Source: an uncultured delta proteobacterium (GTDB lineage Bacteria; Myxococcota; Myxococcia; Myxococcales; Myxococcaceae). Taken from it: a DNA stretch of 64,000 nucleotides. A program made the position numbers and the translations under genes. Below, in pieces: positions 1 through 30,379 of the stretch (position 1 is its first letter; every line of letters begins with the position of its first letter). The notes beneath the pieces are model-generated. The model saw only the letters and a program-made list of their open reading frames with translations. It did not search any database and was not told the origin of the DNA. Location of the stretch: positions 1 through 64,000 of the forward strand of contig CAVYSY010000028.1 of assembly GCA_963771175.1 (NCBI GenBank), in the 5' to 3' direction.

Positions 1-57
1 CACCCCAGACTGGACACTGCAGCAGAGCGCGACGCGGAGCATCCCCGCCTCCTAACC

Positions 58-538
58 CTACGAGTCGTCTGATACCTTTTCGGGCACTGCAGTTCCGCAC
101 AAGAAGCAGGCCAGGGGTCCCTCCCAACTTTCATCCACCTTCAGGGGAGTGTCAGGATGACATGGCACTTCCACGCGCCGCATATCGTTGGGCTCCAGCG
201 GAGGTTTGATGTCCGGCATACGTGTTTGCCTGGTGCGCACTTTTGTTTTTCAAGAGGCCGCCACTGGTGCGCCCCAGACGCTGGAAAGACTTTGCTATGC
301 GATCCAAAGCTGGCTCCATCACCTCCTTGGCGGCCACTCCTCGCGCGTATTCCAGTTGTGCGTGGGTCCACCACGTCTGGTGCCTGTCCATCACAGTGCA
401 GTACGGGCAAGTGTAAAGAGTTTGCTGGTCAATGCGGGTGAGCTTGGCTTTGAATTGGCGCAAGCACTTGGGGCACTCGCGGCGAATGAATCCATCGGCG
501 TCAACGGGGAAGGATACTGGGATATGAACGATGCTCAT
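58..538 (-). CDS. Zn-ribbon (CxxC-rich) hypothetical protein, one frameshift near 241-251
   Basis: From ATG 538: MSIVHIPVSFPVDADGFIRRECPKC...CPYC...WWT; continues in ORF 58..240 (EPNDM..VPCH..CFLCG). The frame switch falls in the T-run ttttgtttttt. Confidence 0.7.
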
Positions 539-674
539 AGGTACTTTTCCTAGTAGGACAGGGCATGTTGAGCATGCCCCAGTGAAGTTGTGGGATGCGG
601 CTGTCACTGCGCTCGCGACATGCCATCGCAAGTTAAGCAAGACGGGTTGATTGCGTGATCTCTCCGGAATTTCC

Positions 675-941
675 CTACGGTTGCATCACGTGCACTGAGG
701 CGTTGACATGGCCACCATATCCTCCCAGGTCAACCGTCACATGCCAATGACCAGGGTGCGGAGGCCGAATGATAGCGGGTGACTGCGTGTAACGCCCCCC
801 CAGGTAGCGATGTCGCGCCCCTCGCCGGAAGGCGCTAAAGTTGGTGCCATCCATTACCCGTACGTTGGCCGCATTGCCCGACAAATTCACGACGATGGCG
901 TCACCCGGCTTGGTGTCCACTTCGAAATGCAGAAATTTCAT
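675..941 (-). CDS. DUF1883 domain-containing protein
   Basis: 88 aa with NAANVRVMDGTNFSAFRRG..YLGG..SP....GHWHVTVDLGGYGG, the pattern I recognise for DUF1883. Confidence 0.8.
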   Translation of the reverse strand: MKFLHFEVDTKPGDAIVVNLSGNAANVRVMDGTNFSAFRRGARHRYLGGRYTQSPAIIRPPHPGHWHVTVDLGGYGGHVNASVHVMQP

Positions 942-1240
942 ACCGCACCCCGAGCCATGAGCTCAGGCTGGCAGTGGCCGCAGTTGCTGTACCTCACCTC
1001 TGCCAGATGCGGATCCGTGGCGGGGTCCCACCGCGTGATGTGGAGCTGCCAGCGCAAGCCATCCCACAGGTAATAACCGGCGAAGAAGTGCATGTGGGCG
1101 GCTACCATCGAATCGAGATTGTGGCTGCCGTGGCAGTTGCTGCCCGTGTAATGCACCTCGTGCGTGTGGTGATTCCACAGCAGGTTGAAGCCGAGCTGGT
1201 GCTTCAGTCGGATGGTCAGGTGATTCTGGTAATTCAGCAT
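938..1240 (-). CDS. Small His/Cys-rich protein, Ada-metal-binding-like Zn finger
   Basis: NHHTHEVH..C...YSNCGHCQP; 4-nt overlap with the DUF1883 gene; GGAG upstream of the ATG. Confidence 0.55.
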   Translation of the reverse strand: MLNYQNHLTIRLKHQLGFNLLWNHHTHEVHYTGSNCHGSHNLDSMVAAHMHFFAGYYLWDGLRWQLHITRWDPATDPHLAEVRYSNCGHCQPELMARGAV

Positions 1241-1380
1241 GATTTACGCTCCAATGTAGGTGGGGGCAGGAGAGTTCGGCCCCTCAACTAGTTGGTGCTG
1301 GGCAGACGGACACTTTCAGCAAGGGGCTGAAAAAAAGTCGCTGGCCAGCACCTTCCCTTGCCGAGGACGGGGCTGTTCGG

Positions 1381-1959
1381 ATGGAACGGGCGGTTGCCGA
1401 GCGGTTTGACAGAGAGTTTGAGAGCGCCCTGCTGAGGACCACTGCGTATGCGGTCCGACTATGTCGGGCGCTACATGGTGGCGAGATGTGGTCACAGGTG
1501 CGACAAAGAGCCGAGGAGTACGTGCATGAGGCCATCGCTCTTACCCTGGAGGGTACGCGACCTTGGATGCATGAGAGCGTGCCCCTAGCCGGTCATTTGT
1601 CAGGGGTAGTTCGTAGTCTCGTGTCCAATGAGGTGAGTAGTTCCTACATAAAGTTGCGTGACGCGAGAGCGTGGGAGGAAAGCGTGGAGATGAACGCAGA
1701 TGCGTCAATCCGGCGCCCCATCACTCCAGAGGAGTTCTACCTCTCGAAGGAAGCATGTGAGCAAATCGAGGAGGACGCCTACGATGCCGCAAGCACCGAT
1801 GACTCGCTCATCGCGTTCGTGCAAGCCGTTGCAGACGGGGCGTTTGAGGTGGGGGAAATAGCGAAGGCAAACAATGTTCCGCCCGAGCGCATTTACCTAG
1901 CTAAAGACAAGCTCAAGAAGCGCTACAAGGCTCTTCTCAAAAAGAGGCAGGCATCATGA
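1381..1959 (+). CDS. Divergent ECF sigma-factor-like protein
   Basis: AEEYVHEAIALTLEG.RPW...LAGHLSGVVRS (region 2-like) and C-terminal HTH VGEIAKANNVPPERIYLAKDKLKKR (region 4-like). Confidence 0.6.
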   Translation: MERAVAERFDREFESALLRTTAYAVRLCRALHGGEMWSQVRQRAEEYVHEAIALTLEGTRPWMHESVPLAGHLSGVVRSLVSNEVSSSYIKLRDARAWEESVEMNADASIRRPITPEEFYLSKEACEQIEEDAYDAASTDDSLIAFVQAVADGAFEVGEIAKANNVPPERIYLAKDKLKKRYKALLKKRQAS

Positions 1960-2396
1960 AAAAGCAGCTTACCTCCTCTCAGCAATTTGTTCAGCGGCTT
2001 GAATTGCTGGACGCGCTCGATGCCGAACTGCCCTCCAGCGATGCTGAGGCTGAGCGTATTCTGCGTGAGGCAGGAATTGACCCCAGGGCGCTTGTCGCAC
2101 GTGCGCGGAAGCATGTGCAAGAGACACGATGCCGCCTATCTCAGTCTCGCTTGGCTCAAGCATCTGAAACACGTGAAGCGGAGAGTTTGCGTCTGGTGGA
2201 TCAGGTGAAGGCATTTGCCTCCCTGAGCACTGAAGAATTGATGACTCGTGTTCGTGCGCTTGTGGAATCGCCACGGGGGCAACATCTTGCTGTGGCTCAC
2301 AAGGGACTGACTGGGCCATCTTCGCGTGAAGAGCTTGTGGCTCTTCTTGTTGAGTATGAACACTTAGCGAGCGAGAAGAGCAGTGGGCAAAAGTGA
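1956..2396 (+). CDS. Helical hypothetical protein, candidate anti-sigma / protease substrate
   Basis: 146-aa ORF with ATGA overlap to the sigma-like gene and overlap with the peptidase gene. Function inferred from position only. Confidence 0.6.
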   Translation: MKKQLTSSQQFVQRLELLDALDAELPSSDAEAERILREAGIDPRALVARARKHVQETRCRLSQSRLAQASETREAESLRLVDQVKAFASLSTEELMTRVRALVESPRGQHLAVAHKGLTGPSSREELVALLVEYEHLASEKSSGQK

Positions 2397-3177
2397 TGCT
2401 GATATCGCACGTGGCGAGAGGCGAGCCCGTGCAGTGCTTGCCCAAGAGGGGCTTGCCCATCTTGGCGACATAAACATCGAGGATTTTGCATATCTTCGTG
2501 GTGCGCTAGTGCGTAATTTCCCGCTCAAGGGCTGCGAAGGTCGTCTTGCGCGGCTCGGCTCTCGTGCCGTCATCAGCGTCAGCGCCTCAATTGAGTATGA
2601 GCCTCGACGCCGTTTCGTTATCGCTCACGAGTTGGGTCATTTGGAGTTGCATGAGGAGCACAATCAATTAGAACTCTCCTTGTGTGATGAGGATGTCATC
2701 AGTGAACTGTATGATCTAGGCACTGAGCAGGAAGCCAACGCATTTGCCTCTGAGCTCTTAATGCCTAGCGAGGTATGGAGAAAATGTTGCGATGTTGCCC
2801 ACCCTTCGCTTGACTACGTGTCTGAACTTGCTCGGAAGTTCAAGGTCAGCTTTACTGCGGCTGCTATTCGCTTTGCAAGGTTTAGTGGCGAGCGTTGCTG
2901 CGTCGTCTATTCTAAAGATGGAGTAGTCAAGTGGGCTGCGGCGGGACCCGACTTTCACTACTGGATAGAGCGTGGCGCGCACCTTCGTCCAGCAACACTT
3001 GCTAGCGACTACTTCCGAAAGGGCGGTTGTCGTGCGGAGCCAGAGGAGGTTGCGGCTTCAGCTTGGTTGGAATCTCCCGATGCTCGTGGCGAAGAGCTAT
3101 GGGAGCATAGTCGAGTCATTTCATCGCAAAAGGCTGTTTTGTCGCTGCTATGGATCCCAGAAGGGTCTGAATTTTGA
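2383..3177 (+). CDS. ImmA/IrrE-family metallo-endopeptidase (DUF955)
   Basis: RRRFVIAHELGH (HExxH), EQEANAFASELLMP, HTH LARKFKVSFTAAAIRF and an IrrE-like C-terminal domain. Confidence 0.9.
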   Translation: MGKSDADIARGERRARAVLAQEGLAHLGDINIEDFAYLRGALVRNFPLKGCEGRLARLGSRAVISVSASIEYEPRRRFVIAHELGHLELHEEHNQLELSLCDEDVISELYDLGTEQEANAFASELLMPSEVWRKCCDVAHPSLDYVSELARKFKVSFTAAAIRFARFSGERCCVVYSKDGVVKWAAAGPDFHYWIERGAHLRPATLASDYFRKGGCRAEPEEVAASAWLESPDARGEELWEHSRVISSQKAVLSLLWIPEGSEF

Positions 3178-3311
3178 AATCGACTTCCACTACTTTAGAG
3201 CCGGCGAGAGTCACGGTTCTGTGGTTTTTGGTTGAGTCGGTGGAATGGGAGCCAAGCTTCACTCATGAACCAATTCCTTGACAATGCTTCAGCAATTCTG
3301 CGTGCTCCGGG

Positions 3312-3369
3312 GAAGGTGTCAAAGGATTCGTTCCGACGCCTCGCGCCCTACGAATCGTCTGACACCTTC
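3312..3369. repeat. REP-like inverted doublet (19-bp arms, 20-nt spacer)
   Basis: gaaggtgtcaaaggattcg-N20-cgaatcgtctgacaccttc; 3340-3369 matches 30212-30241 at 28/30 nt. Confidence 0.8.
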
Positions 3370-3418
3370 GGCCGGCGCCCATGACCATTCGCCGGATGCG
3401 AATCACGGAGCCGGCGAT

Positions 3419-4262
3419 TCACTTCCCGAGCTGGTTCAAGAGCAGGCTCACGAAGCCGACCACGTCGGCTTGGTTGTCGTCATCGGGCCGGCCTTCGAGG
3501 AAGTGAGCGACCCGCATTGGGCCGAGGCTATCCTGGGTCAGGAAGTCCTCGCGGAGGATCGTGAGCGCCTTGATGCAGTGCTCGTCCTGCAAGAGGGGCA
3601 GCATCCGTTGGACGATGTCCTCCACGCCTTGTCCGAAGTATTTGAGGACGTAGAACAGATCGTAGGCGTCCTTGTTCGTTCCCCGGATCCTGAACGCCAG
3701 CGCTTTGAGGACGATGAAAGCACCCGCACCGCATACCCAGAGGTGACGGTGGGCACGCTCCCCCCGGATCGTGATGTCGTTCATCTCCACGCGGACACGG
3801 TCCCTGAACGCCAGATGGAGCCCGCCGGGCATGATGATGGCCGCGAAATCCGGCTCGAGGTTGCGCAGCTTGCCGGGCTGGTCATCAGCGCGCGTGGGCT
3901 GAATAAGGAAGTCCAGTGTCATCCGGCCCTGTTCGTATCGATTCCCCACGTCTGGCGCGAAAGCCGTCCGTTCCCGTTCGGGGCTTGCGTGAAGCCCGCT
4001 CCCCTCAGCCGTTCGGCGATCTCCTGGTATCGCTCCTCGTCGAACACCGCGATAGATAGACCGAGGTCGAGGTCCGGGTTCCGGCGTGCACCTCCACGGA
4101 ATCGTCTTGGGGGGTGATGAGCAGCGAGGGGACGAGCCCACCGACGACGGTGATCTCCTCGATGAGATCACCCAGGACGGTCGCCACGTAGAGACAGGTG
4201 GCTCGGGCGAGCAGGGCCAGCTCCGGCGGATATCCCGCGCGCGTCTGCGGCTTCTCAGCCAT
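3419..4262 (-). pseudogene. Type IV TA nucleotidyltransferase toxin (AbiEii-like), at least 2 frameshifts (real or sequencing error)
   Basis: ITVVGGLVPSLL..HAGT/DLDLGL (across a frameshift)..AFIVLKALAF..KDAYDLFY; start overlaps the antitoxin stop. Confidence 0.8.
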
Positions 4263-5299
4263 GAAGACTCCAGGCGAGCTGCTTGTGGCGGAGATCCTCC
4301 GCCGCCTCCTGTGCGCGCTCGGGCATGGCGAGTAGATCCAGGTAGGTCTGTACGCCGCTGACGCAACGAATACCTCGATGTCGACGGCTCCGTCGAAGAC
4401 ACCCCGGTAATCGGGCAGGATAGCCAGACATCGGCGCCTCGCTCCTCCTGCCTGAAATGGAGCAGGTCCAACGAGGGCAGTTGCTGCACGTCGACCGTCA
4501 CGACCCGGAAACCGGCGAACCCTGCGTGCAGCCACGCGGACGCAAGCCCCGTTGCGGCATGGGGGATCGAGCCTCTCCCTCAGCGAGCCCGTGAGCGTGC
4601 CAGCGGCATCTGGGGAGAGCGCGTCGGGATATGGCCTCGGACAACATTGTGGCGGTTAAACGAGTACGCCTTTCGCCAGGCCTCCAGGAGCAGGCCGGGA
4701 TTCCTGACCCGGAGGGCACCGTCCTCTCGTGAGAGGAACCCCTCGCTCTCGAGCTGTCGAACAATGCGACTGACGAAACCTTCCCCCAGCCCCGTCTCCT
4801 GGGCGAGCTCCCGTTGGCGGAAAACCCGGGTGGGATCGAGCAGCAGGTGGCGTGTCACACGGGCGCTCTTGGGCGCGAAGACATTCGCGGGGCGGCCTGG
4901 CTTTCGATGCCGATTGGGGCGGCCCTCGATCCGGACGCGGAGACCCGACCCATGGAGATTGGCGTTCCCAGCCAAGTCGATCCAGGACACAGCTGCGGAA
5001 CGGCAGAGCTGCTTGCCGACTTCCCCCATGAAGGGGACCGCGATGACGGGAATGGCGGGCTTGTAGTTGCGCCACACGCGCACTCGCTTCAGTTGCTCGA
5101 TTCCCATCTCAAGGCTTCGGGCACTTGCCGAGGGTTTGCACTCCACCAGGAACAGGTGCTCGGGGCCCTCAACGATGAGATCCACCTGCTTCAGAGTAGG
5201 GGGGCCGATGTTGGAGGTGCCCTCGTAGGGACGCAGGGGCTCCTCCAGGACCTCCGTTAGCACGGCAAGGGCTTCTTCTTCAAAGTCCCGGTCCATCAT
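4255..5299 (-). pseudogene. Type IV TA AbiEi-family antitoxin (winged HTH), about 3 frameshifts in the 3' third
   Basis: WIDLAGNA, wHTH FRQRELAQETGLGEGFVSRIVRQLESEG, LLEAW; reconstructed end RCVSGVQTYLDLLAMPERAQEAAEDL..HG* at 4255. Confidence 0.8.
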
Positions 5300-5719
5300 T
5301 TCTTCACTAAATACACCGATTTGAGTACTTAGTAAAGTAGGGACATTAAGTAAAGGTGGCTCCAAGCTATTGATTTTAAAGGAGGTTGTTGGAGCTGCTT
5401 CACTCAATTCTTTAACTTCACGGTGCGGTGTAGAGGAGGATTTAAGTGAAGCGGCCGGGGGAGCGTGCCCCTGGTTGACCGCCGTGAGGCAGCCCGGGGC
5501 CGCAGGGGTTGTGGGGCCGGAGTTCCACCAACCTCCGGCGCAGGTTCTCCGCGAGCGAGGACGGGACCCCCGCGCGCTCCCTCAAGTGAGGGCAAAGCCG
5601 AAGAGTTAGGAGGAATGGGGGCCCTGTTGAGGGGCGGGCTGATGTAGCAGGGGCCGAGAAAGGGCCGCTGACGGGTGTCACGCAGGCTGTGCGCCGGGCC
5701 AGTGCAGAAGCCGTGCAGG

Positions 5720-5869
5720 CCCCTTGGGGCACACCCCGCCCAAGCCGCCCTCCCCTCAGGGGCCGGCAGAAGGTGTCAGAGGATTTGTACAGCCCCCTTG
5801 GGGCACACCCCGCCCAAGCCGCCCTCCCCTCAGGGGCGCCGGCAGAAGGTGTCAGAGGATTTGTACAGC
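5720..5869 (+). repeat. Tandem duplication (74 + 76 bp), each copy ending in the REP-like motif
   Basis: ccccttggggcacaccccgcccaagcc...gaaggtgtcagaggatttgtacagc at 5720-5793 and 5794-5869, differing by a 2-nt indel. Confidence 0.95.
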
Positions 5870-6045
5870 AGGGCGCTCCCGCCTGGCTCGTGGAGAAAAC
5901 GGGGCCCGCCGTCCCCGCGCAGAAGGAGTACACCCTCGCCCAGGTCCGCGAGGACTTCTGACTCCTGGGTGAGCAGCTCCGTCATGAGGGGCACCGCAGA
6001 TGGCAACTGCTCTCCGGCGGCGGGGTCGGTCCCGCCGACTCGGGC

Positions 6046-7327
6046 CTACTTGTCGAGCACCATGGTGCGGATGAAGCCCTTGGGGTGCCGGGCGTAGGAG
6101 CGCAGGTGCATGGCCACGTCCACCATCCACGGCACCCAGTCCCCCGTGTCGATGACCGCGTCCACCGCACGCTCCCGGTTGCGCGCGTACCACTCGCGCC
6201 AGTGCTTCACCTCGTCCGACGACAGCCGGCCCGACAGGCCCTGCGCCCTCAACAGCAGCTCGAAGATGCCCCGGTGGCAGTAGATGTACTGGCCCCCGCC
6301 CTTCCACGACAGCGCCTCGCGCGACACCTCGGCGAGCTGCGCCTCGTGGCCGCACGCCGCCTCGTACACCATCAGCGGCAGCGGGCTTGCCCCGCGCGAT
6401 GTCGAAGCCCATCTGGCTGTAGAAGCGCGGGTTGAAGTCGATGAGGAGCTGCTTGCCTCCGGCTCGGATGAACTCCAACTCGAACGTGCCGTGGTAGCCG
6501 AGCTTCTTGCACAGCGCTCGCAGCTTCTCGGCGAGCACCGGCTCCACCGGCACCTCCTCGAAGCACAGGCCGATGCCCAGCTTGCGCGGACGCTGCAGCA
6601 CCTTCACCGCCCCGCGCGCCACGAACAGCTCGCCCGTCCGGTCCACGAAGCCGCTCAGGCTGAAGATGTTCTGCGCCGCCTCCGGGTAGAAGGCCTGCAC
6701 CATCGGCCGGTTCGCCTTCGGGTCCTGGTCCAGCAGCTTGCGCCCGTACCGGTTGCGCTCCAGGAACTCCCGGTAGCGCGGCAGCAGCTCGCTCGCGCGC
6801 TCCACCTGCGCGCCCTTCACGTGGCTCTCGAACAGAATCTGCGTCTGCGGCTTGAGCAGCACCGGGAAGCGCGCCTCGGCCGCCACCCGCTCGAGGTCCT
6901 TCTCGCCCTCGGGGAACCACGTCTCCGGCACGTCCAGCCCCACGTCCTTGCACAGGTCGTGCAGCCGCTGCTTGTTCAGCAGCCCGTAGATGACGTCCAC
7001 GCCCGGCTGGTACATGAGGAAGTGCCGCCCCAGCTCCTCGCGGTGCAGGGCGAACAGCCACGCCATGTCATCGCTCGTCGGGTAGAGCACGTGGCCGGGC
7101 TCCCGCTCGCCGAAGCGCATCAGCCACTCCAGGAAGGCGTCCGAGTCGCCCACGTCCGGGCACTCCACCCGGCGCGTCACGTAGCGGCTCCAGCGCGCGG
7201 GCGCCAGCAGCTTGGACTCGGCCACCGTGATGGGGATTCCCAGCCGGCCCAGGCAGCGGACCGCGGCCAGCGTGCCGTAATAGTCGGCCATCGTCAGCAG
7301 GATGGGAGGACGGGCCAGTGTCGTCAT
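6046..7327 (-). CDS. ATP-grasp (carboxylate-amine ligase-like) protein, frameshift near 6385
   Basis: LYPTSD, LNKQRLHDLC..VPET, FPVLLKP, GYHGTFELEF, LIDFNPRF; C-terminus continues in ORF 6046..6372. Confidence 0.85.
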
Positions 7328-7349
7328 GGGTTGCATTCCTCGGGTGTGA

Positions 7350-8489
7350 CTAGCTCGGGCTCGCCGGGGTGCTCACCACCGGTTGCGGAGCGGGCGCCGG
7401 CTTCTTCTCGCCGCGCCAGTCGAAGCGGTCCTTCAGCTTCAGGAAGGGAGTCTCGAAGTAGCGGTAGCTCAGCGTGGCCAGCCCGATGCTCAGCGCCAGC
7501 GTCAGCACGTAGTAGACCGCCTCGTTGTGGAACGGCACCACCCGCCGCACGATGTTCAGCGAAATCATGTGCAGGAGGTAGATGCCATACGTGATGGAGC
7601 CCATGTAGCGCAGCCACGCGTGGTCCACCAGCGGCGCCAGCACATGGTTGGGGCGGATGCACATGGCCACCACCATCACCGTGAGCAGCAGCGAGGACAG
7701 CCACAGCGGCGTGTCGTACCGGTAGATGGCCACCGACACCAGCAGCACCACCACCGGCACGCTCCACGCCTGCCCCAGCACCTTCCACGTCCACTCGAAC
7801 GTCTTCGGGTAGTGCGTCAGGTACGCCGCCAGGCACCCCATGCAGATGGAGATGGAGACGCTGGCGAGGATGCGCACCCACAAGTGCGTCGTGTCGAGGT
7901 AGCCCGTCGTCACGCCCCAGTGCGCGAACAGCCCCAGGCCCAGCAGCCCCGACATGAAGACCACCGGCCCCCAGGCGCTCTTGAAGGCGCGCACCACGAA
8001 GGGCCACATCAGATAGAACTGCTCCTCGGTGGCCATCGACCACGCGAAGTAGAAGATGATGCGGCCCTCTTCCAACGGGATGAACCAGTTGGAGGTGTAC
8101 GTCAGGTAGTAGGGCACGTTGTCGAAGAACGCCCCTCGCACCAGCGGGTCCTTCTCCAGGAAGAACACCAGCACGATGTAGAGGAACGTCACCGCGTAGT
8201 AGAGCGGGAAGATGCGCAGCGACCGCCGCGCGTAGAAGCCCTTGAGCGAGATGCTTCCCGTCTTCGCCCGCTCGCGCAGCAGCAGCGTGGTGATGAGGAA
8301 GCCACTGATGGCGAAGAAGAGCGAGACGCTCAGGTAGAAGCGGCCGATGAGCCCCTGCCGAGCCTCCAGCACGTGGTAGAGCACCACCGCCAGAATCGCG
8401 ATGGCGCGCAGCCCGTCCAGGGCGCCAAAGGTCTTCGTACGCAGGAAGGACTGATGAGCGGCTTGGGCGGAGTCCATGTCTTGACGCAT
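7350..8489 (-). CDS. Acyltransferase family 3 (O-acyltransferase), integral membrane
   Basis: LDGLRAIA, FFAISGFLIT, FYARRSLRIFP, WSMATEEQFY, YGIYLLH, SYRYFETPFL. Confidence 0.92.
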   Translation of the reverse strand: MRQDMDSAQAAHQSFLRTKTFGALDGLRAIAILAVVLYHVLEARQGLIGRFYLSVSLFFAISGFLITTLLLRERAKTGSISLKGFYARRSLRIFPLYYAVTFLYIVLVFFLEKDPLVRGAFFDNVPYYLTYTSNWFIPLEEGRIIFYFAWSMATEEQFYLMWPFVVRAFKSAWGPVVFMSGLLGLGLFAHWGVTTGYLDTTHLWVRILASVSISICMGCLAAYLTHYPKTFEWTWKVLGQAWSVPVVVLLVSVAIYRYDTPLWLSSLLLTVMVVAMCIRPNHVLAPLVDHAWLRYMGSITYGIYLLHMISLNIVRRVVPFHNEAVYYVLTLALSIGLATLSYRYFETPFLKLKDRFDWRGEKKPAPAPQPVVSTPASPS

Positions 8490-11863: not shown

Positions 11864-11873
11864 CGAGATGGCC

Positions 11874-18985: not shown

Positions 18986-18986
18986 C

Positions 18987-22284
<3,298 letters not shown>

Positions 22285-22451
22285 CGCGGGTCCTCGTCGG
22301 TCTGGCGTGAAGGGGTGCCCAGACTACCCCGACGCGGGCTTCGAAAAGGGTCGCCCGGGGTAAGGGTCTTCACGTTCTAGAAGTTCCCGCTTTTCTCATT
22401 GTACTCGGAATGTATGTTCGCGGGCCTGACGCACTCCCCCTGGAGCTCCGC

Positions 22452-23585
22452 ATGCCCTCGCACGAGACCCCTTCGCGCCGTCCCTGGCTGATGCTGCCCG
22501 TGGCCCTGGCGCTCGCCTGTGGTGGACCCAATGACCTCCCGGAGGAAGTGCGCCTGGCGCAAGAGCCCCTCACGACGCTGGCGGATCCCACGGCGTGTAG
22601 CGCCAACGGTGGGGCCGGACCCTTCCTCGTCTACATGACCACCAGCGGCAATGACGCCAATACCGGGCGAACGTCGAGCAGCCCCGTGCGCACCCTGAGC
22701 CGGGTGCAGGACATCATCCGGGCCGCGGCCCCCACCTGCCCCACCGAGGTGCGCATCGGGACAGGCACCTACTACGGGCAGAGCGTGGCCTGGAGCTACG
22801 TGTCGGGCCATGAGATCAAGTTCATGCCGGCCGATGGGACCAGCGCCGTGCGCCCCGTCTTCGATGGCTGCTCGTCGGCGAGCGGCGCGTGCACGCAGCT
22901 CACGTGGTTCACGCTCAGCAATTCCTCCGGCGTCCACTCGAAGCTGCACTTCTGGTACATCCGCGTCCAGCGCTACAACACCGCCATCAGCTTCAACGGC
23001 CAGCGGGACAACCTCGCGGGCTACAACGGCGGCAACCGCATCTTCGGCTGCTACTTCGATCAGCTCGGCAATGGCTGGGCGGGCTCCACGAGCCATACAT
23101 ACAGCACGGCGGCCGTGCGGCTGGTGAACTCGGACGACAACGTCATCGAGAACAACCACTTCTACAACATCATCAATTCGACCAGCCCGGCCGCCCTGCA
23201 CGCCATCTACGTCGCGCACAAGTCGGATCGAAACTCCATCCTGCGCAATGTCTTCGAGCGCGTGTCCGGGGACGCCATCCGCGTCCGCGACTACTCCAAT
23301 TACAACATCATCAACCAGAACCGCATCACCCGGGCCGGCGCCTATGGGTACTCGGAATGGCTCTGCGACTCGGCGCAGCGCACCGACTGCACCCTGGCCA
23401 CCGAGTGCCGCTCGTACCAGAACGAGTTCCGCGACAACACGCTGGATGGGACCTACTCCTGCCAGCCCATGACCACCTGGGTGTACTACCAGACGGACTA
23501 CCCGGTGAACTGCGCGCGCGCGCAGCTCGACCCCCGCCTGCGCACCAGCGGCAACGTGCAGACCTCCGCGCCCTGCTCGCTGTGA
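22452..23585 (+). CDS. Right-handed beta-helix (pectin-lyase-like) lipoprotein
   Basis: Lipobox LALAC; SGNDANTG..SPVRTL; Asn-ladder repeats NVIENNHF, NSILRNVF, NIINQNRI. Confidence 0.8.
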   Translation: MPSHETPSRRPWLMLPVALALACGGPNDLPEEVRLAQEPLTTLADPTACSANGGAGPFLVYMTTSGNDANTGRTSSSPVRTLSRVQDIIRAAAPTCPTEVRIGTGTYYGQSVAWSYVSGHEIKFMPADGTSAVRPVFDGCSSASGACTQLTWFTLSNSSGVHSKLHFWYIRVQRYNTAISFNGQRDNLAGYNGGNRIFGCYFDQLGNGWAGSTSHTYSTAAVRLVNSDDNVIENNHFYNIINSTSPAALHAIYVAHKSDRNSILRNVFERVSGDAIRVRDYSNYNIINQNRITRAGAYGYSEWLCDSAQRTDCTLATECRSYQNEFRDNTLDGTYSCQPMTTWVYYQTDYPVNCARAQLDPRLRTSGNVQTSAPCSL

Positions 23586-23719
23586 GTCAGTGGAGTGCCC
23601 CCTGCCTGTCGCGAATGCCCCGCGGTCGGAAGTGGGCTGGGTGCTCGGCACACCCCTTCTCCTGTAGAGGCGTGGTTCCGGAAGGCGGCCCCCCCCACTG
23701 AGGAGGGGCCGCGAGACCG

Positions 23720-25378
23720 TCACTCGGCCTTCTTCGGCGCGCGGACCTCGCCCACCATGCGGTGGACCGGGTAGAGCTCTCCCACCGTGATGCCGCCGTC
23801 GAGGAACTGCCAGCGGCAGAAGCCGTCATCGGAGTGCGGCTCGAGCAGGTACACGGCCAGGGTGCCCGCGCGCTGCGCCGTGGGGACGTACAGGGTGCCC
23901 GCGGGGAACTCGCGCGTGGAGCGCTCGGGGGCCACCGTGAGCACGGTCTCGAAGCGCACGGGCTTGGGCTTCTGGCTCAGCGGCACCTCGGCCTCACCGG
24001 GCGGCGGCACGTTCGCCGCCACGTCCGGGCTGAACGTCTCCTCGCGCCGCGCCACCCGGTAGCTGTCCACCGTGAACCGCTGGGGCGCCTCCACGCGCTC
24101 GAAGCGGATGCCGTGCCCCTCCAGGCGCGTGGCGAGCTCCGCCGGCACGAGGTACCCCACCGGCGTGCTCACCGCCTGCGTGGGCACGAACGTCCGGTGG
24201 TGCGGGGCGTCATACGCGCGCCGACGCTTTCCCGGGTAACGCCGCTCGGTGATGCTCGCCTCGTCGAAGGCCAGGAGGTGGGCCGTGTCCCCGGGCTTCG
24301 CATAGGCCGGGTACTCGAACACGAGCGCGCCCTTGTCATCGCGCGTGGCGACTCCGTAGTTGATGCCCACGAGCGTCTGCACGTCCGGCGACTCGCCGCG
24401 CGCGATGATGCGTGCCTCCTCGGCCTCGGTGGCGGCGCGATAGGCCTTGGCGTTCTTGGCCGCGTCGCGGAACAGCTCCAGCAGCCACGCCCGCATCACC
24501 TCGCAGCGGCGCTTGTAGTCCAGGTAGCTGTAGGTCTCGAGCAGCACGTCCATCCGCCCGAGCAACCCGCGGTAGTGGCTGCCGAAGCGCGGGAGCGCCG
24601 GGTAGGTGTGCCAGCCCGAGCGGGGCTCGCCCTCGACCTTGTAGTTGCCGTACCAGAAGCTGTCGAAGTCGTGGCGCTTCTTCACCGCCTTCGCCACCCG
24701 CTCGAGCATCTCGCGGTTGAACGCGCGCAGCTCCGAGAAGAGCGGCTCGTTCGAGTGCGACGTGTCGTAGGTGAGGTCGAAGGCGTGGATGCTGCCGTCG
24801 GTGGTGTGGCAGTCGATGAAGAGGTGCGGCCACCACGTCTGATACAGCTTCGCGATGCAGCGCGTCTCGGGCGCCTCCTGCTTCGTGCTGTCGCGGTTGA
24901 GGTTCCACCCCTCGCCCGTGTAGCGCGTGCCCACGCCGCCCGGAGGGTTCACCTGCCCCTCGAGGTTCTTCAGGTCCAGCTTGCGGTTGTTCGGGCTGAT
25001 GCGGTCGTTGCCATCGGGGTTGAAGTTCGGAATCAGCACCAGGCACAGCTTGTCGAGCAGCGTCTTCCCGAGCTTCGTGAGCGTCAGGTCCCTCGCGAGC
25101 GCGAGCACGGACTCCTTGCCCTCGACCTCACCGGCGTGGATGTTGGCCTCCACCATCACGATGACCTTCTTCTGCTTGCGCGCGAGCTCGGGCGTGAAGC
25201 AGCCGCGGTCACTCACGATGAGCGCCACCATGGGCTGGCCTTCACCGCTCGTCCCGAAGTCCACGCGCCGGACAAGCTTCGAGCGGCGGCAGAGCTCGTC
25301 GACGAAGGAGAGCACGTCGGCGTGACGAGAGGTTTCGGTGTACTTCGAGGCTTCAGCGCGAGTGAGCAGCTCGGTCAT
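23720..25378 (-). CDS. M14 family zinc carboxypeptidase
   Basis: NIHAGEVEGKE, NPDG, NLNRD, DCHTTDG. Confidence 0.9.
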   Translation of the reverse strand: MTELLTRAEASKYTETSRHADVLSFVDELCRRSKLVRRVDFGTSGEGQPMVALIVSDRGCFTPELARKQKKVIVMVEANIHAGEVEGKESVLALARDLTLTKLGKTLLDKLCLVLIPNFNPDGNDRISPNNRKLDLKNLEGQVNPPGGVGTRYTGEGWNLNRDSTKQEAPETRCIAKLYQTWWPHLFIDCHTTDGSIHAFDLTYDTSHSNEPLFSELRAFNREMLERVAKAVKKRHDFDSFWYGNYKVEGEPRSGWHTYPALPRFGSHYRGLLGRMDVLLETYSYLDYKRRCEVMRAWLLELFRDAAKNAKAYRAATEAEEARIIARGESPDVQTLVGINYGVATRDDKGALVFEYPAYAKPGDTAHLLAFDEASITERRYPGKRRRAYDAPHHRTFVPTQAVSTPVGYLVPAELATRLEGHGIRFERVEAPQRFTVDSYRVARREETFSPDVAANVPPPGEAEVPLSQKPKPVRFETVLTVAPERSTREFPAGTLYVPTAQRAGTLAVYLLEPHSDDGFCRWQFLDGGITVGELYPVHRMVGEVRAPKKAE

Positions 25379-25681
25379 GGGCGCGCATCCGAGCGTCCCC
25401 GTCACGCGGCGTCAAGCACTTGGGAGCGACATCTGGGGCCGCATCGACCCGCTCGACCACCCACGGCTCGAGCCGCGCTGAGCCGCCCCCACGTCAGTGG
25501 AATCACGTACTGATGATGTGCCTGTCAGACCTCCCTCACTACGGTTCCCGCCAGCGCACGTCAGGCCGCGGAACATCGCACGTCAGGGCTTGCGCTCCGA
25601 GGAACGGACAGAGGGTCCGCTCCCGGGCAGTGAGCGCACATGCGGCCCCATCCGGGCCGATGATCGAGGGGGAAAATACAC

Positions 25682-27409
25682 ATGAAGATGAAACTGATTG
25701 GAGCGGCACTGGTCGGGGGACTCCTGGGTGCGTCGAACGCCCAGGCCCAGTCGACTCTTTTCTCGGATGACTTCGCCAGCAGCCCGTTCACCAGTGAGAA
25801 GTGGGCGGTGACCCGGAACGGCGACCCGCAAGCGGCCCATGATGCCTCGGGGCAGAGCTTCTACCTGACCCAGGTGGGCGGCGGCGGGGGCGGCATCTCC
25901 ATGTTCGCCAACACCCCGCTCAAGACGCGCAAGTGGGAGGCCTCGTTCCGCTACCGGATCGGCGGCCTGTACCAGGGAGGCGCCGACGGGCTCGTCTTCC
26001 TCTTCTACAAGAAGGGCGGCTACACGCCCGGCGCCGGTGGGTTCCTCGGCTTCAACCCGCCCTACGCCCCCCAGCCCGGCTACGGCATCGCCATCGACAA
26101 CTACTACAACGCGGGGTGGGACCCCTCGGGCAGCTACATCGGGCTCATCTCCAACACCACCTACACCTTCTCGGACAAGCTCGCCTACGCGAACGACCGG
26201 CGGACCGAGGACGGCGTGTGGCACTCGATGAAGGTGCGCTTCATCGACGGTGAGGTGTCCGTGTACGTCGACAGCGGGCTGCTCTTCACCCACAAGATGG
26301 CCACACCCAACTACACCTATGACGGCGTCGGGTTCTCCGCCGGCAGCGGCGCCGACCAGAACTACCACCAGATCGACGACTTCGTCCTGACGAACCTCGA
26401 GGTGCCCGTCTGGACCTCCACCGGCAGGATGAACCTGGAGCACGGCCTCCACACGGCCACGAAGCTGACCGGGGGCAAGGTGCTCGTCGTCGGCGGCTAC
26501 AACAGCTCGGCCGAGCTGTATGACCCGGCCACCGGCACCTGGAGCTTCACCGGCTCCGCGTCCACCTCGCGCATGCTGCCCACCGCCACCCTGCTGAAGG
26601 ATGGTCGGGTGCTCGTCACGGGAGGCGAGAACGACGCGCACGCGCTGGCCAGCGCCGAGGTGTATGACCCGGCCACCGGCTCGTGGAGCGCCACCGGGGA
26701 CCTGGGCACGGGCCGTCGCGACCACACCGCGACGCTGTTGAGCGATGGCCGGGTGCTCGTCACGGGGGGTTACAGTGAGTCCTCCGGGGCCCTCTCGTCG
26801 GCCGAGCTGTACGACCCGGCCACCGGCGCGTGGACGCCCGTGGGCTTCCTGTCCCAGGCGCGCAGCCAGCACCAGACGGTGGCGCTGTCCAACGGCCGGG
26901 TGCTCGTCGTAGGAGGCCAGGGGGCTGACGGCATGCCCCTGAGCAGCGCCGAGGTGTATGACCCGTCCACCCGCTCGTGGAGCCCCGTGGGAAGCCTGAG
27001 CACGGGCCGGCGCTACCACACCGCCACCGTGCTGAAGAACGGCCGGGTGCTCGTCTCGGGCGGGTATGACGCGAACGCCTCCGTACTCGCCTCGGCCGAG
27101 GTGTACGACCCGGCCACCGGCGCCTGGAGCAGCACCGCCAGCCTGGGCAAGGGCCGCCGCCACCACACCGCCACAGCGCTCGGTGATGGTCGGGTGCTCG
27201 TCTCGGGCGGGTACAGCGAGTGGTACGGCATCCTCGGCTCGGCCGAGGTGTATGACCCCTCCACGGGCACCTGGAGCGACACCGCCAGCATGGGGCTCGT
27301 GCGCTACAACCACACCGCCACGCTGCTGAACGACGGCCGCGTGCTGTCCGTGGGTGGCTTCAGCACCGGCGACCAGGCCTCCGCGGAGCTGTTCGGTCCT
27401 CGCAACTAA
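25682..27409 (+). CDS. Secreted L-type lectin + Kelch-repeat protein
   Basis: Signal peptide; GADGLVF (legume-lectin-like); repeated HTATLL.DGRVLV.GG..SAEVYDP. Confidence 0.9.
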   Translation: MKMKLIGAALVGGLLGASNAQAQSTLFSDDFASSPFTSEKWAVTRNGDPQAAHDASGQSFYLTQVGGGGGGISMFANTPLKTRKWEASFRYRIGGLYQGGADGLVFLFYKKGGYTPGAGGFLGFNPPYAPQPGYGIAIDNYYNAGWDPSGSYIGLISNTTYTFSDKLAYANDRRTEDGVWHSMKVRFIDGEVSVYVDSGLLFTHKMATPNYTYDGVGFSAGSGADQNYHQIDDFVLTNLEVPVWTSTGRMNLEHGLHTATKLTGGKVLVVGGYNSSAELYDPATGTWSFTGSASTSRMLPTATLLKDGRVLVTGGENDAHALASAEVYDPATGSWSATGDLGTGRRDHTATLLSDGRVLVTGGYSESSGALSSAELYDPATGAWTPVGFLSQARSQHQTVALSNGRVLVVGGQGADGMPLSSAEVYDPSTRSWSPVGSLSTGRRYHTATVLKNGRVLVSGGYDANASVLASAEVYDPATGAWSSTASLGKGRRHHTATALGDGRVLVSGGYSEWYGILGSAEVYDPSTGTWSDTASMGLVRYNHTATLLNDGRVLSVGGFSTGDQASAELFGPRN

Positions 27410-27452
27410 CAGCCAGCTCGGCGGGAGCACTCATCGCTCCTGAATAAAAGAA

Positions 27453-27479
27453 GGGCGGCGGGCTTCGGACCCGCCGCCC
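27453..27479. terminator. GC-rich hairpin, intrinsic terminator-like
   Basis: gggcggcggg-cttcgga-cccgccgccc with an upstream A-tract; same 26-nt core at 39121-39146. Confidence 0.6.
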
Positions 27480-27563
27480 GGAGCCTCCGTCGGCCTCGCG
27501 CACCCAGTTGCGCAGGGCCGACCCGGGCAGGTCCAGCTCCTTGGCCACCTGGGGCAGGCTCAG
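27478..27563 (-). mobile_element. IS3-family transposase OrfA HTH remnant
   Basis: LSLPQVAKELDLPGSALRNWVREADGG; no start codon or remainder of the element seen. Confidence 0.7.
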
Positions 27564-27658
27564 CGGATGAGTCGGACCAGACGGCCTACCAACCCCTCCT
27601 CGCCAGCTCGCTAAATGAGGGGATGCCTCAGGTCATGACCAATTTACTTGGCCACGTT

Positions 27659-27720
27659 ACCAGAAATGCTGGCTATATCACCAAGATTCTTGGCGAAATA
27701 GCCAAGATTATTGGTAGAAT
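27659..27720 (+). promoter_or_regulatory. 28-bp imperfect inverted repeat (operator) overlapping an extended -10 element
   Basis: Arms 27659-27686 and 27688-27715 (22/28 complementary); TGgTAGAAT at 27712-27720; GTG start at 27727. Confidence 0.65.
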
Positions 27721-27726
27721 TACGTC

Positions 27727-28068
27727 GTGCTCGACCAGAGGTCTCAGCTCTTTGGTACTTCGACCAGGACGGCGGTGCTCGTCGCCATCCGTTTGCTCGA
27801 AGAAACCTATCCCAGCGAACTCGCGGCTCTGCTCGGCGTACGCCCATACACCGTCCAATCCATTCTGGTGCCGCTCGAACGGGAAGCGATCATCGTCAGT
27901 CGGTTGATGGGGCGAACTCGTACGGTCGCGCTGAACCCTCGATACTTCGCGCACGCCGAACTCAGCGAGCTGCTTTGGAAGCTCGGAGAGCACGACGTGG
28001 ATCTTCAGGCCAAGCTCGCCGCGCGACGGCGCCGTCCGCGCCGCGCCGGTAAGCCGGGGCTCTTGTGA
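27727..28068 (+). CDS. Small winged-HTH protein (putative antitoxin / autorepressor)
   Basis: LFGTSTRTAVL..ETYPSELAALLGVRPYTVQSILVPLEREAIIVSR.MGRTR..LNPRYF. Confidence 0.8.
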   Translation: MLDQRSQLFGTSTRTAVLVAIRLLEETYPSELAALLGVRPYTVQSILVPLEREAIIVSRLMGRTRTVALNPRYFAHAELSELLWKLGEHDVDLQAKLAARRRRPRRAGKPGLL

Positions 28069-28601
28069 TCGGGCCCACGTCGTCGCTCACCGACGTTGCC
28101 TTCGCCGTGTGCACGGCACTGGATCGCAAGGGCTTCCACGCAGTGCTCACTGGCGGAAGCGCGGCGACCTACTACGCGCCGGACGCGTACCAGTCGGGCG
28201 ACCTCGACTTCGTGATCACCCTCCATGGAAAGGAAGGCGAAGCGGCGCTGGTTTCGCTCGGCTTCGCCAGGAAGGGAGACTTCTACCGTCACCCACGCTC
28301 GCACTTCCTCTTGGAGTTCCCGAACGGGCCGCTGGCGGTGGGTGACGACTTGATCACGAACTGGAGCACCGTCCGTCGTGGCGACGAGGTGCTGTACGTG
28401 CTGTCGCCCACCGACTCATGCCGTGACCGACTCGCGTCGTATCTCTTCTGGAACGACTTCAGCGGCCTGGAACAGGCGATCGCCGTCTTCCACGCACGGC
28501 CGAATGAGGTGGATCTGAACGTCATCGAGGACTGGTGCCGTCGCGAGGGTCACAGCAAGAAGTTCGCTCTGTTCGCGTCACGCGTTGGTGCATCAACCTG
28601 A
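28065..28601 (+). CDS. Nucleotidyltransferase-fold protein (type IV TA toxin-like)
   Basis: VLTGGSAA.YY..YQSGDLDFV; LSPTDSCRDRLA; GTGA overlap with the wHTH gene. Confidence 0.8.
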   Translation: MIGPTSSLTDVAFAVCTALDRKGFHAVLTGGSAATYYAPDAYQSGDLDFVITLHGKEGEAALVSLGFARKGDFYRHPRSHFLLEFPNGPLAVGDDLITNWSTVRRGDEVLYVLSPTDSCRDRLASYLFWNDFSGLEQAIAVFHARPNEVDLNVIEDWCRREGHSKKFALFASRVGAST

Positions 28602-28771
28602 CGATTCCCCACGGGTCGGAGTGCTGCAGAAGCCATGTGCTTGCCCCTGTTCCGGGCTACTCGCGAGGGCGGCGATTGCGCATGCAGTTCCCCTTGCCCA
28701 TCCGCTTCGTGAGCGCCTCGAGGCGGTCGGTTGCTTCGTCGGCTGCTCGAGTTCTTTGACACCCTCGCTGG

Positions 28772-28831
28772 CGCTACGTGCTGGCCCATGGGGTGAAAGA
28801 GGGGCTGGTGGAGAGGTGCACCGAGTGGCCC
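28772..28831 (+). mobile_element. Y1 HUH (RAYT/IS200-like) transposase remnant
   Basis: RYVLAHGVKEGLVERCTEWP resembles the catalytic-Tyr motif (RYI..NPV.AGLV....WP); abuts the REP-like copy at 28748-28766. Confidence 0.65.
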
Positions 28832-28913
28832 CTCTCGGCGGGCGGCGCCTTCCTGGGTGGGCTCTCCTCCTCCGGCCCTACCTTCTCCCCCACTTTGGGG
28901 AGCGAGGCGCGGC

Positions 28914-29912
28914 CTATTGAAAGAACTCCTCCAGCTCCTGCCTCGCCTTCTCCCGCGCCTTCCTCACGGCCTTCACGAAGGCCGCGGCGCCGTAGACGAA
29001 CTTGGACGACAGCTCCTGTTCGAGGGTGCGCTTCTTCAGCAGGTCGAGTCCCTCTTCGGTGTGGAGGTCCTTCTCGTCATTGGCCAGCTCCTTGACGATG
29101 CTGAACGTTGCCACGCTGGACAAGAGCACCCAGGGAAGGTTCTTTCCCGAGAGCGGTTGGAGGCCGACCTTGGGGTCGACGACGAAGAAGGTCACGGCCC
29201 CCACAAGGGAGATGCCCTGGCTTTGGAAGTAGCTCAGGGTGTCATGGATGGCGTCGGCGTCGGGCCGATAGTGGCCGCTGTGGCTGGTGATGGCCATCAG
29301 CCGGCCATCGAGGATGCGGATCTCGCCTGCGGCCAGCACCGGCCCGCCGCGCACGAAAGTGGAGTGGGCCACATGGTCGCTCTTGTCCAGGTGGTTGAAG
29401 ACATACAGCCGCCTCTTGAGATCGAGGACGAAGGCGCCGAAGTGGGCCTTGCCGTGGGACTCCATGCCCAGGGTGCTGAAGGGGCGCGGACGCCCGTTCG
29501 AGGCGCGCTTGCAGAACCGGCCCCCGGACAGCTCGACCTGGTAGGGGCGTGCCTGCCATTCGGCATACATCTTGGTCTTCCCGCTCGTGAGCCCCTTGCC
29601 CTGGTCGAGCTGTCGCGAGGGCTCGTTGACGGTGAGCACCTTCTTGAAGGTGCCGGATTGGGCCCGCTTCATCATGGTGAATCGAATGTCGGACAGGTCC
29701 TTGATGCCAAGCAGACGCTTGAGGATGGCCAGGTGTCTGGAATGAATCTCCGAGAGCTTGCGGTCCTCGTCCTCGTCGAGCTTGGAGAGGTCCTTGAGTG
29801 CCCTCCTGGTGTTCTCGAGAATCTCCCACGAAGTATCCAGTTGCTCGGGCTCCTCGGTGCACATCATGGACAGTGAATCCAACGACGAGATCTGCTCGAA
29901 TATCTCGGACAT
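28914..29912 (-). CDS. Hypothetical protein with HS(T/S)F..G..V.AAG...SGHYRP motif
   Basis: HSTFVRGGPVLAAGEIRILDGRLMAITSHSGHYRPD; GGAG SD before ATG 29912. Confidence 0.75.
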   Translation of the reverse strand: MSEIFEQISSLDSLSMMCTEEPEQLDTSWEILENTRRALKDLSKLDEDEDRKLSEIHSRHLAILKRLLGIKDLSDIRFTMMKRAQSGTFKKVLTVNEPSRQLDQGKGLTSGKTKMYAEWQARPYQVELSGGRFCKRASNGRPRPFSTLGMESHGKAHFGAFVLDLKRRLYVFNHLDKSDHVAHSTFVRGGPVLAAGEIRILDGRLMAITSHSGHYRPDADAIHDTLSYFQSQGISLVGAVTFFVVDPKVGLQPLSGKNLPWVLLSSVATFSIVKELANDEKDLHTEEGLDLLKKRTLEQELSSKFVYGAAAFVKAVRKAREKARQELEEFFQ

Positions 29913-29997
29913 GTAGGCTCCCAGGCGCGGGGGGAGGTCGACTTTAGTGCCGTACGAGGTGCCTGACACCTTCCCAGGCCTATACGCGGAACCCGTG

Positions 29998-30176
29998 ATC
30001 GCCCGTCCGCTGCCGCGCGAGCCCTTCAAAGGGCAGAAGCGCCCTCCCTGCACCCGCTACGCCGAGGTGGACATAAGCTGAAGGCCCCATGCCCGGACGT
30101 GCTCTACGAGTACCAGGGGGAGTGCTACGTGCCCGCCTTCAGCGCGAAGCCGCCACCCCAGTCGCTCGGGCAGTGA
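29998..30176 (+). pseudogene. Remnant of a Cys-rich C-terminal domain homologous to ORF 46451-47248
   Basis: RPLPREPFKGQKRPPC...LKAPCPDVLYEYQGECY..PQSLGQ*, with internal deletion and frameshift. Confidence 0.8.
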
Positions 30177-30211
30177 GTGGCGCGGGGTTCCTCGCCCCTG
30201 GCACCCGGGTT

Positions 30212-30379
30212 CTCGCGCCCTACGAGTCGTTTGACACCTTCACTGGGACACCTTCACTGGGGCAACCTCTCCACCGATGCGTCCACTGACACGTCAATTG
30301 ACGCGTCAACCGACACGTCCACGAGGTGTCAGACGGCTCGTCAGGGGCGCGGTCCCGGCACGACTCCTCTGACACTTCC
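30212..30379. repeat. Cluster of REP-like copies plus 14-bp and 12-bp tandem repeats
   Basis: REP 30212-30241; gacaccttcactgg x2 (30233-30260); four 12-bp units 30273-30320; inverted doublet 30322-30340 / 30361-30379 with 20-nt spacer. Confidence 0.8.

Follow-up and report, generated by a model that had tools for sequence, protein, structure and literature searches.

Ten copies of a short inverted-repeat unit in a myxobacterial contig, probably members of an Archangiaceae repeat family linked to a RAYT-like Y1/HUH gene

The DNA analysed here (the window) is a stretch of 64,000 nucleotides from an uncultured delta proteobacterium (Myxococcaceae in GTDB; assembly GCA_963771175.1, contig CAVYSY010000028.1, positions 1 to 64,000 of the forward strand). 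It contains ten copies of a short repeat motif, which lie in two low-G+C patches, one in the first 6 kb and one around 30 kb, set in a high-G+C backbone. We describe this repeat and the gene to which it is linked in related genomes, which encodes a putative Y1/HUH nuclease resembling the tyrosine transposases (RAYTs) that are associated with repetitive extragenic palindromic (REP) sequences. We scored the window with a 30-nt weight matrix that was trained on 91 unique half-sites of the motif from other Archangiaceae genomes, with the window left out. This independent matrix recovered exactly ten sites, the same ten that a preliminary description of this DNA had listed and no others: 54–83, 3308–3337, 3344–3373, 5765–5794, 5841–5870, 28741–28770, 29948–29977, 30216–30245, 30318–30347 and 30354–30383. 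The sites score 18.7–43.7 bits, and the top score in 30 simulated sequences was 10.5 bits. The rest of the window scores at most 8 bits, and the backbone is thus free of the motif, as had been described. The 24-mer consensus had three window matches at up to three mismatches versus none in 100 shuffles, and its 10-mer core had 11 matches at up to one mismatch versus a mean of 2.77. All six exact core matches fall in the two patches (3312–5854 or 29964–30241), and the three one-mismatch core matches in the backbone equal the chance level. Every copy lies in a gap between gene models or overlaps a gene end by 19 nt or less. The repeat motif is real and significant: like REP sequences and their hairpin-forming doublets (REPINs), it is a short extragenic repeat that is over-represented in one lineage (0 expected versus 3 and 10 found).

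The window copies are half-sites of an imperfect palindrome of 54–60 nt. This unit consists of a left arm (GAAGGTGTCAAAGGAyTCGT), an 18-nt centre with CTAC/GTAG that often contains a small hairpin, and a right arm (ACGAATCGTCTGACACC); the half-site types are named AAAGGAC..., GACGATTCGTAGG... and GAGGATTTGTACAG. Its core is shared by Archangium, Cystobacter and Vitiosangium and is mostly 54 nt long, and an alignment shows that both the core length and the asymmetry of the arms are conserved across species. In all species alike, the same two or three positions distinguish the left arm from the right, and the stem of about 20 pairs therefore contains two or three mismatches. Two complete palindromes are found in the window, at 3306–3373 (doublet 1) and 30318–30385 (doublet 2). 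A covariance model built from 23 full units detected only these two in the window, doublet 1 on the plus strand (80.8 bits, E 3e-20) and doublet 2 on the minus strand (62.7 bits, E 3e-15), which means that they are oppositely oriented. As the covariance model detects full units well and half-sites poorly, half-sites were scored by the weight matrix.

Doublet 1 (left arm 3308–3337, right arm 3344–3373) is 83–91% identical to copies in Archangium and Cystobacter loci. Folded as DNA it reaches −17.4 kcal/mol (z −3.1), and a copy from Archangium lansingense (L060; loci from relatives are numbered with an L) reaches z −4.2, values that speak for a hairpin in both. Its centre reads, on the minus strand, GTAG followed by a five-pair mini-hairpin, as had been noted before; the centre of the A. 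lansingense unit forms a different mini-hairpin. Doublet 2 is more diverged (half-sites of 18.7 and 26.0 bits) and lies 107 nt upstream of a gene at 30492 that encodes a pretoxin-HINT (PT-HINT) domain. The two doublets had been said to share the same 20-nt spacer. Their spacers are indeed of equal length, 18 nt by the limits of the arms, but match only partially in sequence.

Solo half-sites stand beside these doublets. The one at 54–83 (minus strand; 31.5 bits, fold z +1.45) is of the right-arm type and has GTAGGG and part of the loop but no left arm. At 5716–5869 (plus strand), a tandem duplication with a period of 74–76 nt (2.1 copies, 96% match by Tandem Repeats Finder, TRF) abuts the 3' end of the backbone open reading frame (ORF) 5852–7336, and each of its units ends in a GAGGATTTGTACAG-type half-site (5765–5794 with 38.1 bits and 5841–5870 with 38.2 bits). 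In the second patch, the half-site at 29948–29977 (minus strand, 26.1 bits) lies upstream of a gene with an SGHY motif (28914–29915, minus strand) and at the 5' break of a gene remnant at 29938–30177 (plus strand). This remnant is the frameshifted C-terminus of a paralogue of gene 46358–47248 (tblastn with P0121, E 7e-10 and 3e-5; DNA repeat family D16), and consists of about residues 219–296 of 296 in two pieces in different frames. A further solo half-site, with a right arm and half a loop, occupies 30216–30261 (minus strand, 35.0 bits). As had been observed, 30212–30241 matches 3340–3369 in doublet 1, 27 kb away, at 28 of 30 positions (DNA repeat family D13, 93%). Its outer end is duplicated in tandem at 30233–30261 (14 nt × 2.1, 100%, TRF). 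Between this half-site and doublet 2, a 12-nt unit (CGTCAACTGACA) is repeated 3.3 times (30280–30319).

We then examined the distribution of the motif in relatives. A scan of species-representative genomes with a degenerate 20-mer yielded at least 126 loci. Among the matches listed, 62 of 126 loci belong to Archangium, Cystobacter, Vitiosangium or other Myxococcota, while the other 64 are single matches in unrelated phyla, roughly the number to be expected by chance (about 140 chance matches were calculated for the whole collection). The best matches to doublet 1 among those listed span 56–77 nt at 82–92% identity. According to the weight matrix, the 62 Myxococcota loci hold at least 126 unique half-sites, with 26 doublets and 74 half-sites outside doublets. 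Copies are spread along the 12–13.8 Mb chromosomes of the relatives, with at least 43 half-sites seen in A. lansingense loci and at least 22 and 17 in two Cystobacter fuscus genomes; when sorted by strand and chromosome half, the copies are too few to call a bias. Many of them show short tandem duplications of the outer 11–14 nt or of the inner half, and the window shares this habit of micro-duplication (at 30233–30261 and 5716–5869, see above). A 'TCTGAC/TCGACTTTCGCC' junction in L047, L100 and L119 was considered as an insertion sequence (IS) that targets the unit, and is more simply explained as a variant arm.

In relatives, the repeat is linked to a gene. Searches with tblastn over the window and the relatives' loci identified two intact copies of a RAYT-like Y1/HUH gene, one in L027 and one in L012; the window, L059 and L012 also contain fragments of it. 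Each intact gene lies between inverted half-sites: half-sites at 1945 and 1976 (plus) and 3043 (minus) surround the gene in L027, and half-sites at 6579 (plus) and 7605 (minus) surround the one in L012. These flanking copies are diverged variants. As the gene is situated between inverted half-sites, the dispersed unit looks like the frame of the gene without the gene. The fragments in the window, L059 and L012 are also found at half-sites, and the remnant in L059 is fused to a half-site at its 5' end. In the window, the half-site at 28741–28770 (minus strand, 23.4 bits) is a diverged variant that is found 3' of RAYT-like genes in relatives; it occurs beside the genes in L027 and L012 and forms the right arm of a doublet in L088. 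The Y1-transposase remnant that had been reported to abut this copy was recovered at 28766–28831 (plus strand; tblastn with P0001, 86% over 22 residues, E 7e-6). It keeps the conserved Tyr motif and lacks the HUH part, and about 60 nt following the half-site are 88–90% identical at the DNA level to L027 and L059. The proposal that the motif is REP-like and linked to a Y1 gene thus stands: it is a dispersed hairpin repeat, inverted copies of which flank both intact RAYT-like genes.

The gene encodes a protein of about 310 amino acids (aa) with a conserved C-terminal half. The ORF in L027 (1987–3039) matches the NCBIfam profile REP_Tyr_transpos with E 2.2e-13 over profile positions 4–144 of 146. 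Among 8000 scored candidates, 729 protein relatives were found at E ≤1e-5, the closest of which come from Archangiaceae, and several close relatives are annotated as 'REP element-mobilizing transposase RayT' in their source records. Invariant in 26 aligned members are N62-H63-x-H65 and Y122, the latter within RY[VI]LxHGVKE. Y122 is the putative catalytic tyrosine, judging by the HMMER profile alignment to the structure 4er8 (TnpA-REP), which places HUH on HUH and the Tyr motif on the segment YIYINPVKHG. A single-sequence search of the PDB with the RAYT-like protein found nothing relevant. The AlphaFold model of the protein (pLDDT 82, pTM 0.83) has as its top Foldseek match (E 5e-6, TM 0.66 on the target) the complex of TnpA-REP with a REP hairpin, 4er8_A, and matches 2–16 are ISDra2, IS608 and IS200 transposases. 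In its predicted fold and its conserved HUH and Tyr residues, the protein resembles a RAYT.

These observations make it probable that the ten copies belong to a small, non-autonomous repeat family that is specific to the Archangiaceae lineage and tied to the RAYT-like Y1/HUH gene of about 310 aa. By analogy with TnpA-REP and the IS200/IS605 enzymes, the RAYT-like nuclease would bind the hairpin on single-stranded DNA, cut near GTAG, and copy or move the unit into intergenic DNA. Replication slippage, or cleavage and rejoining gone wrong, may have given rise to the solo half-sites, the duplicated termini and the tandem half-site arrays, and recombination or breakage at copies could leave truncated genes beside them. 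The copies may have piled up in the two low-G+C, decaying patches as insertions and rearrangements would be tolerated there, and as a RAYT-like copy would once have been present in patch 2.

Several observations weigh against such a family. First, the evidence for the structure of the unit is uneven: doublet 2 folds no better than shuffles (z −0.2 and +0.5), nor do the solo half-sites (z +0.7 to +1.5), and GTAG follows only three of the ten window half-sites. No compensatory change is seen at any of the 13 predicted pairs, which leaves palindromy as the sole basis for the hairpin. Second, the gene in L027 scores below the curated cut-offs of both NCBIfam NF047646 (50.3 bits versus 80) and Pfam Y1_Tnp (21.4 bits versus 23). 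Its best PDB profile match, 4er8, is weak (E 0.23), and the fold search was relied on for this reason. Third, the gene is not single-copy, with at least three distinct 90% clusters on the A. lansingense chromosome (P0001, P0002 and P0020) and at least five in C. fuscus Cbf 10 (P0021, P0025, P0033, P0052 and P0080). Finally, the source genome is absent among the matches listed, and the intact RAYT gene that would be expected near the motif is present in relatives (L027 and L012) but was not detected in the window by tblastn, where only residues 119–140 remain.

A different enzyme might move the unit. The copies would then be the terminal inverted repeats of a miniature transposon mobilised by a YhgA/Rpn-like PD-(D/E)XK transposase (Transposase_31) or a DDE transposase, and the Y1 gene would be a mere frequent neighbour. 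A finding that fits this explanation, and counts against the RAYT-like one, is that four Transposase_31 paralogues of C. fuscus share a conserved leader of about 235 nt that starts exactly at the motif. These paralogues are found at 2757–4013 in L014, at 3335–3988 in L036, and in L097 and L117; the Pfam Transposase_31 matches in L014 and L036 have E 9e-45 and E 2e-34, and L036 also has a DDE transposase beside the motif. That a half-site alone does not form a hairpin would likewise suit a terminal repeat recognised as double-stranded DNA. However, the Transposase_31 units lie between direct rather than inverted copies, while both intact Y1 genes lie inside an inverted pair. No target-site duplication is evident at the relatives' copies listed, and the conserved arm asymmetry and central GTAG suit strand-specific recognition by a Y1 enzyme. 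We therefore regard mobilisation by another enzyme as unlikely.

The preliminary description had interpreted the copies as Y1-recombination sites, at which the nuclease inserts and excises defence-like gene blocks as mobile cassettes in an integron-like array. The positions of the copies in the window agree with this, with a real enrichment in the patches: they occupy five of nine intergenic gaps in the patches (2293 nt) and none of 20 in the backbone (6667 nt), which in a post hoc test with our gene models gives a Fisher P of 0.001, and P ~0.001 for five occupied gaps when tested by length. Two 5'-truncated genes, the Y1 remnant and the remnant at 29938–30177, start at half-sites, and patch 1 includes capP-like and PDC-M14A-like genes. 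All 11 copies found between 1.497 and 1.580 Mb of A. lansingense (83 kb) point the same way, in a toxin/immunity island that carries AHH, Imm11, Imm49 and SUKH domains.

The relatives' loci nevertheless argue against cassettes. In 22 of these loci we surveyed 134 ORFs lying no more than about 2.5 kb from the motif, and 15 loci contained only ordinary or unassigned genes, such as a P450, TetR with dehydrogenases, an M28 peptidase beside an MBOAT gene, a penicillin amidase, a glutamate symporter, LysR, kinases and RCC1 repeats. The other seven loci contained a transposase-type or toxin/immunity gene: Transposase_31 in L014 and L036, DDE in L036, AHH in L001, SUKH-1 in L038, an Imm5-like gene in L027, and the Y1 gene or its remnant in L012, L027 and L059. 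The G+C content around relatives' copies (mean 0.671 over 8 kb and 0.659 in the central 2 kb; 28 loci, some overlapping) says nothing firm on accessory DNA. Between arrayed copies, genes face both ways, in L060 and L063 of A. lansingense as well as in the window, and no IntI-type integrase or recombinase was found among the 57 window ORFs or the 15 A. lansingense array ORFs (the larger ORFs, the scan covering the array apart from 1571495–1576096). Two C. fuscus loci, L017 and L080, are orthologous, with collinear flanks that are 94% identical on both sides, and in this one pair compared the sole difference at the motif site is the number of tandem half-sites (two versus six). This site lies between M28 peptidase and MBOAT genes (3995–4206 in L080 and 3995–4065 in L017), and its repeat number is unstable.

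Within the window, the genes that lie 3' of two half-sites are broken and there is no intact cargo. As broken genes follow the copies, the truncated genes are better read as scars of breakage or recombination than as signs of cargo delivery. REP sequences can serve as join-points in rearrangements. Lower G+C in patch 2 runs through the PT-HINT gene to at least 32.9 kb, which means that the cluster at 30216–30383 lies inside the low-G+C region and not at its edge. Among the relatives' loci compared, no identical block was found in two contexts. Integron-like cargo cassettes are therefore very unlikely, and these comparisons do not support them. A composite-transposon reading of 3374–5764 was rejected as well: the 36-nt inverted match (pair I6) represents the outer ends of the unit itself, which also occur in A. 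lansingense. We give equally little credence to a more general idea, namely that runs of co-oriented, near-identical units mark islands in which a Y1/HUH enzyme shuffles blocks of conflict genes via single-stranded intermediates, as an HUH counterpart of the integron. The 11 copies over 83 kb in A. lansingense and the copies around the capP-like and PT-HINT genes of the window may be examples, in which case block shuffling would have left the truncated genes at half-sites behind as scars.

Least credible is that the motif is a selected protein-binding or regulatory site (an operator, iteron-like array or promoter element) rather than a mobile repeat: the tandem half-site arrays in L080 and L017, the good sequence conservation across genera and an invariant TTGACA in the left-arm complement, used by the only promoter-like match in 1–6200, would suit it, but the gene pairs that flank copies include convergent, tandem and divergent ones, the neighbours have no common function, truncated copies, micro-duplications and transposase linkage are traits of mobile repeats, and the promoter match may be due to chance, as one site was found versus 1.3 expected. 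This match (3295–3322, minus strand) has its TTGACA at doublet 1, is sigma-70-like (10/12) and points outward.

The RAYT-like repeat family remains the preferred explanation. Several genes around the copies in the window had been labelled differently. The copy at 56–78 was thought to supply the end of a Zn-ribbon gene. The zinc-ribbon-like ORF (152–640, minus strand), which matches PDC-M14A (PADLOC) and weakly YnfU, stops at 152, and the only frame that ends in the copy is an open-ended frame of 23 codons without a recognisable family. The ORF at 1381–1959, taken for a sigma factor, matches no sigma model. For the gene labelled IrrE-like (2383–3177), the best match is PADLOC capP (E 1.3e-60), beside one to Pfam Peptidase_M78. 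This capP-like metallopeptidase gene is part of a low-G+C (57%) block at 1381–3235, in which the overlapping small ORFs 1381–1959 and 1956–2396 upstream of it have no family match. The block may be a CapH/CapP-type regulatory module with an effector outside the window. For the supposed AbiE pair, neither 3419–5407 nor 27727–28601 has a Pfam or PADLOC AbiE match. At 27727–28601, the end of a 113-aa winged-helix ORF and the start of a 178-aa ORF without a family match share 4 nt. This layout resembles a toxin–antitoxin pair; the 178-aa ORF matched neither AbiE nor any other PADLOC model.

Directly downstream of doublet 2, the 616-aa protein encoded at 30492–32342 has a pretoxin-HINT domain (Pfam PT-HINT, E 1.6e-6) towards its C-terminal end. 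The product looks like a polymorphic-toxin scaffold, and neither a toxin tip nor an immunity gene was identified for it. The gene at 46358–47248 represents a multi-copy family of membrane-anchored proteins of about 296 aa with a Cys-rich C-terminus, members of which lie within about 20–115 nt of the motif in L038 (3201–3926), L108 and L109; a further member is found in L069 (7660–8019). A second, unrelated repeat is found in two backbone intergenic regions (45957–46029 versus 61516–61588, 73% over 73 nt), with a near-perfect palindrome (CCTGTCCGACAGTCGGACAGG) at its centre. The region 37072–39195, about 2.1 kb of high-G+C backbone without a convincing gene or a motif copy, apart from a partial protein-kinase domain at 37839–38516, is probably a decayed gene.

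Across the whole window Rfam had no hit that reached its gathering scores, a search for tRNA and tmRNA genes as potential landmarks of an integration site was negative, and no integrase or transposase family was identified among the 57 ORFs scanned. The unit at 3296–3385 had no match in plasmid and phage collections. The family is undescribed in the papers searched for RAYT/REPIN, REP or miniature inverted-repeat transposable elements in myxobacteria, a search that lay outside subscription journals and supplements; an apparent mention of RAYT in a Myxococcus paper was the author name Raytselis in a reference list. As REPIN/RAYT-type systems have so far been studied mainly in Pseudomonas and enterobacteria, the Archangium/Cystobacter family would extend them to the Myxococcota and to very large genomes, and it brings a long, multi-copy RAYT-like gene together with a 54-nt unit of fixed length. 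The repeat would be a handy marker for strain comparison and a test case for whether such copies drive rearrangement in islands of defence or toxin/immunity genes. Annotators can also attribute to it the broken genes and several small spurious ORFs of the two patches.

How does this family compare with known systems? IS200/IS605 elements have a TnpA Y1 transposase and subterminal hairpins, and move by single-strand 'peel and paste'. The Archangiaceae gene is similar in its predicted Y1/HUH fold, in the structured ends that frame it, and in its several copies and decayed remnants. However, its paralogues are 82–94% rather than nearly identical, the protein is twice as long, its top structural match is TnpA-REP, and a gene-less unit of 54–60 nt, formed by the ends, is amplified as well. 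With chromosomal integron arrays (attC, such as the VCRs of Vibrio) the family shares imperfect palindromes of about 60 nt that separate short gene blocks, and in one A. lansingense region the units are near-identical and co-oriented. Unlike in integrons, the genes face both ways and the copies are dispersed over whole chromosomes; neither an IntI with an attI beside the array, among the ORFs scanned, nor co-oriented single-gene cassettes were found. The core sites typical of attC are absent from the alignment of the units.

The REPIN–RAYT systems of Pseudomonas and Enterobacteria (Bertels et al. 2017, PMC5581495) provide a closer comparison. There as here, an extragenic repeat forms an inverted doublet that folds as a hairpin (two units in the window and 26 doublets in the relatives' loci), single units occur beside doublets, and the repeat flanks a Y1/HUH gene, whose predicted fold in the Archangiaceae is nearest to TnpA-REP. 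RAYTs are characterised by a single copy per genome and flanking REPINs (PMC5581495), although several RAYT genes per genome, each with its own repeat family, are allowed for by Quentin et al. (2018, PMC6006769). The Archangiaceae gene, in contrast, is about 310 aa long with a conserved C-terminal half, has several diverged paralogues per genome, and falls below the curated RAYT cut-off. A canonical REP is an imperfect palindrome with GT[AG]G at the foot of its hairpin (PMC6006769), whereas the Archangiaceae half unit is not itself a palindrome, and its GTAG with the small hairpin beside it is confined to the doublet's centre, where it adjoins the inner side of one arm, and is not at the foot of each unit.

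In TIRtrons (Di Nocera et al. 2013, PMC3733652), long inverted repeats enclose a RAYT-like gene and are also found elsewhere as moderately abundant families, with members that may be single, dimeric or clustered. Myxobacteria go unmentioned in that paper, in which Myxococc, Stigmatella, Sorangium and Haliangium have no occurrence. Unlike TIRtron repeats as described there, part of the Archangiaceae copies carry GTAG. In the layout that the paper describes for TIRtrons (TIRYTs), the Archangiaceae family is alike: a RAYT-like gene lies between inverted repeats of 20–30 nt, several such genes are present per genome, and the repeats are elsewhere single, dimeric or grouped. Of these systems, the TIRtron description fits best, by the layout of gene and repeat rather than by protein signatures. 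The family is therefore best filed as a REPIN/RAYT-like (TIRtron-like) system in myxobacteria, an ordinary kind of selfish repeat.

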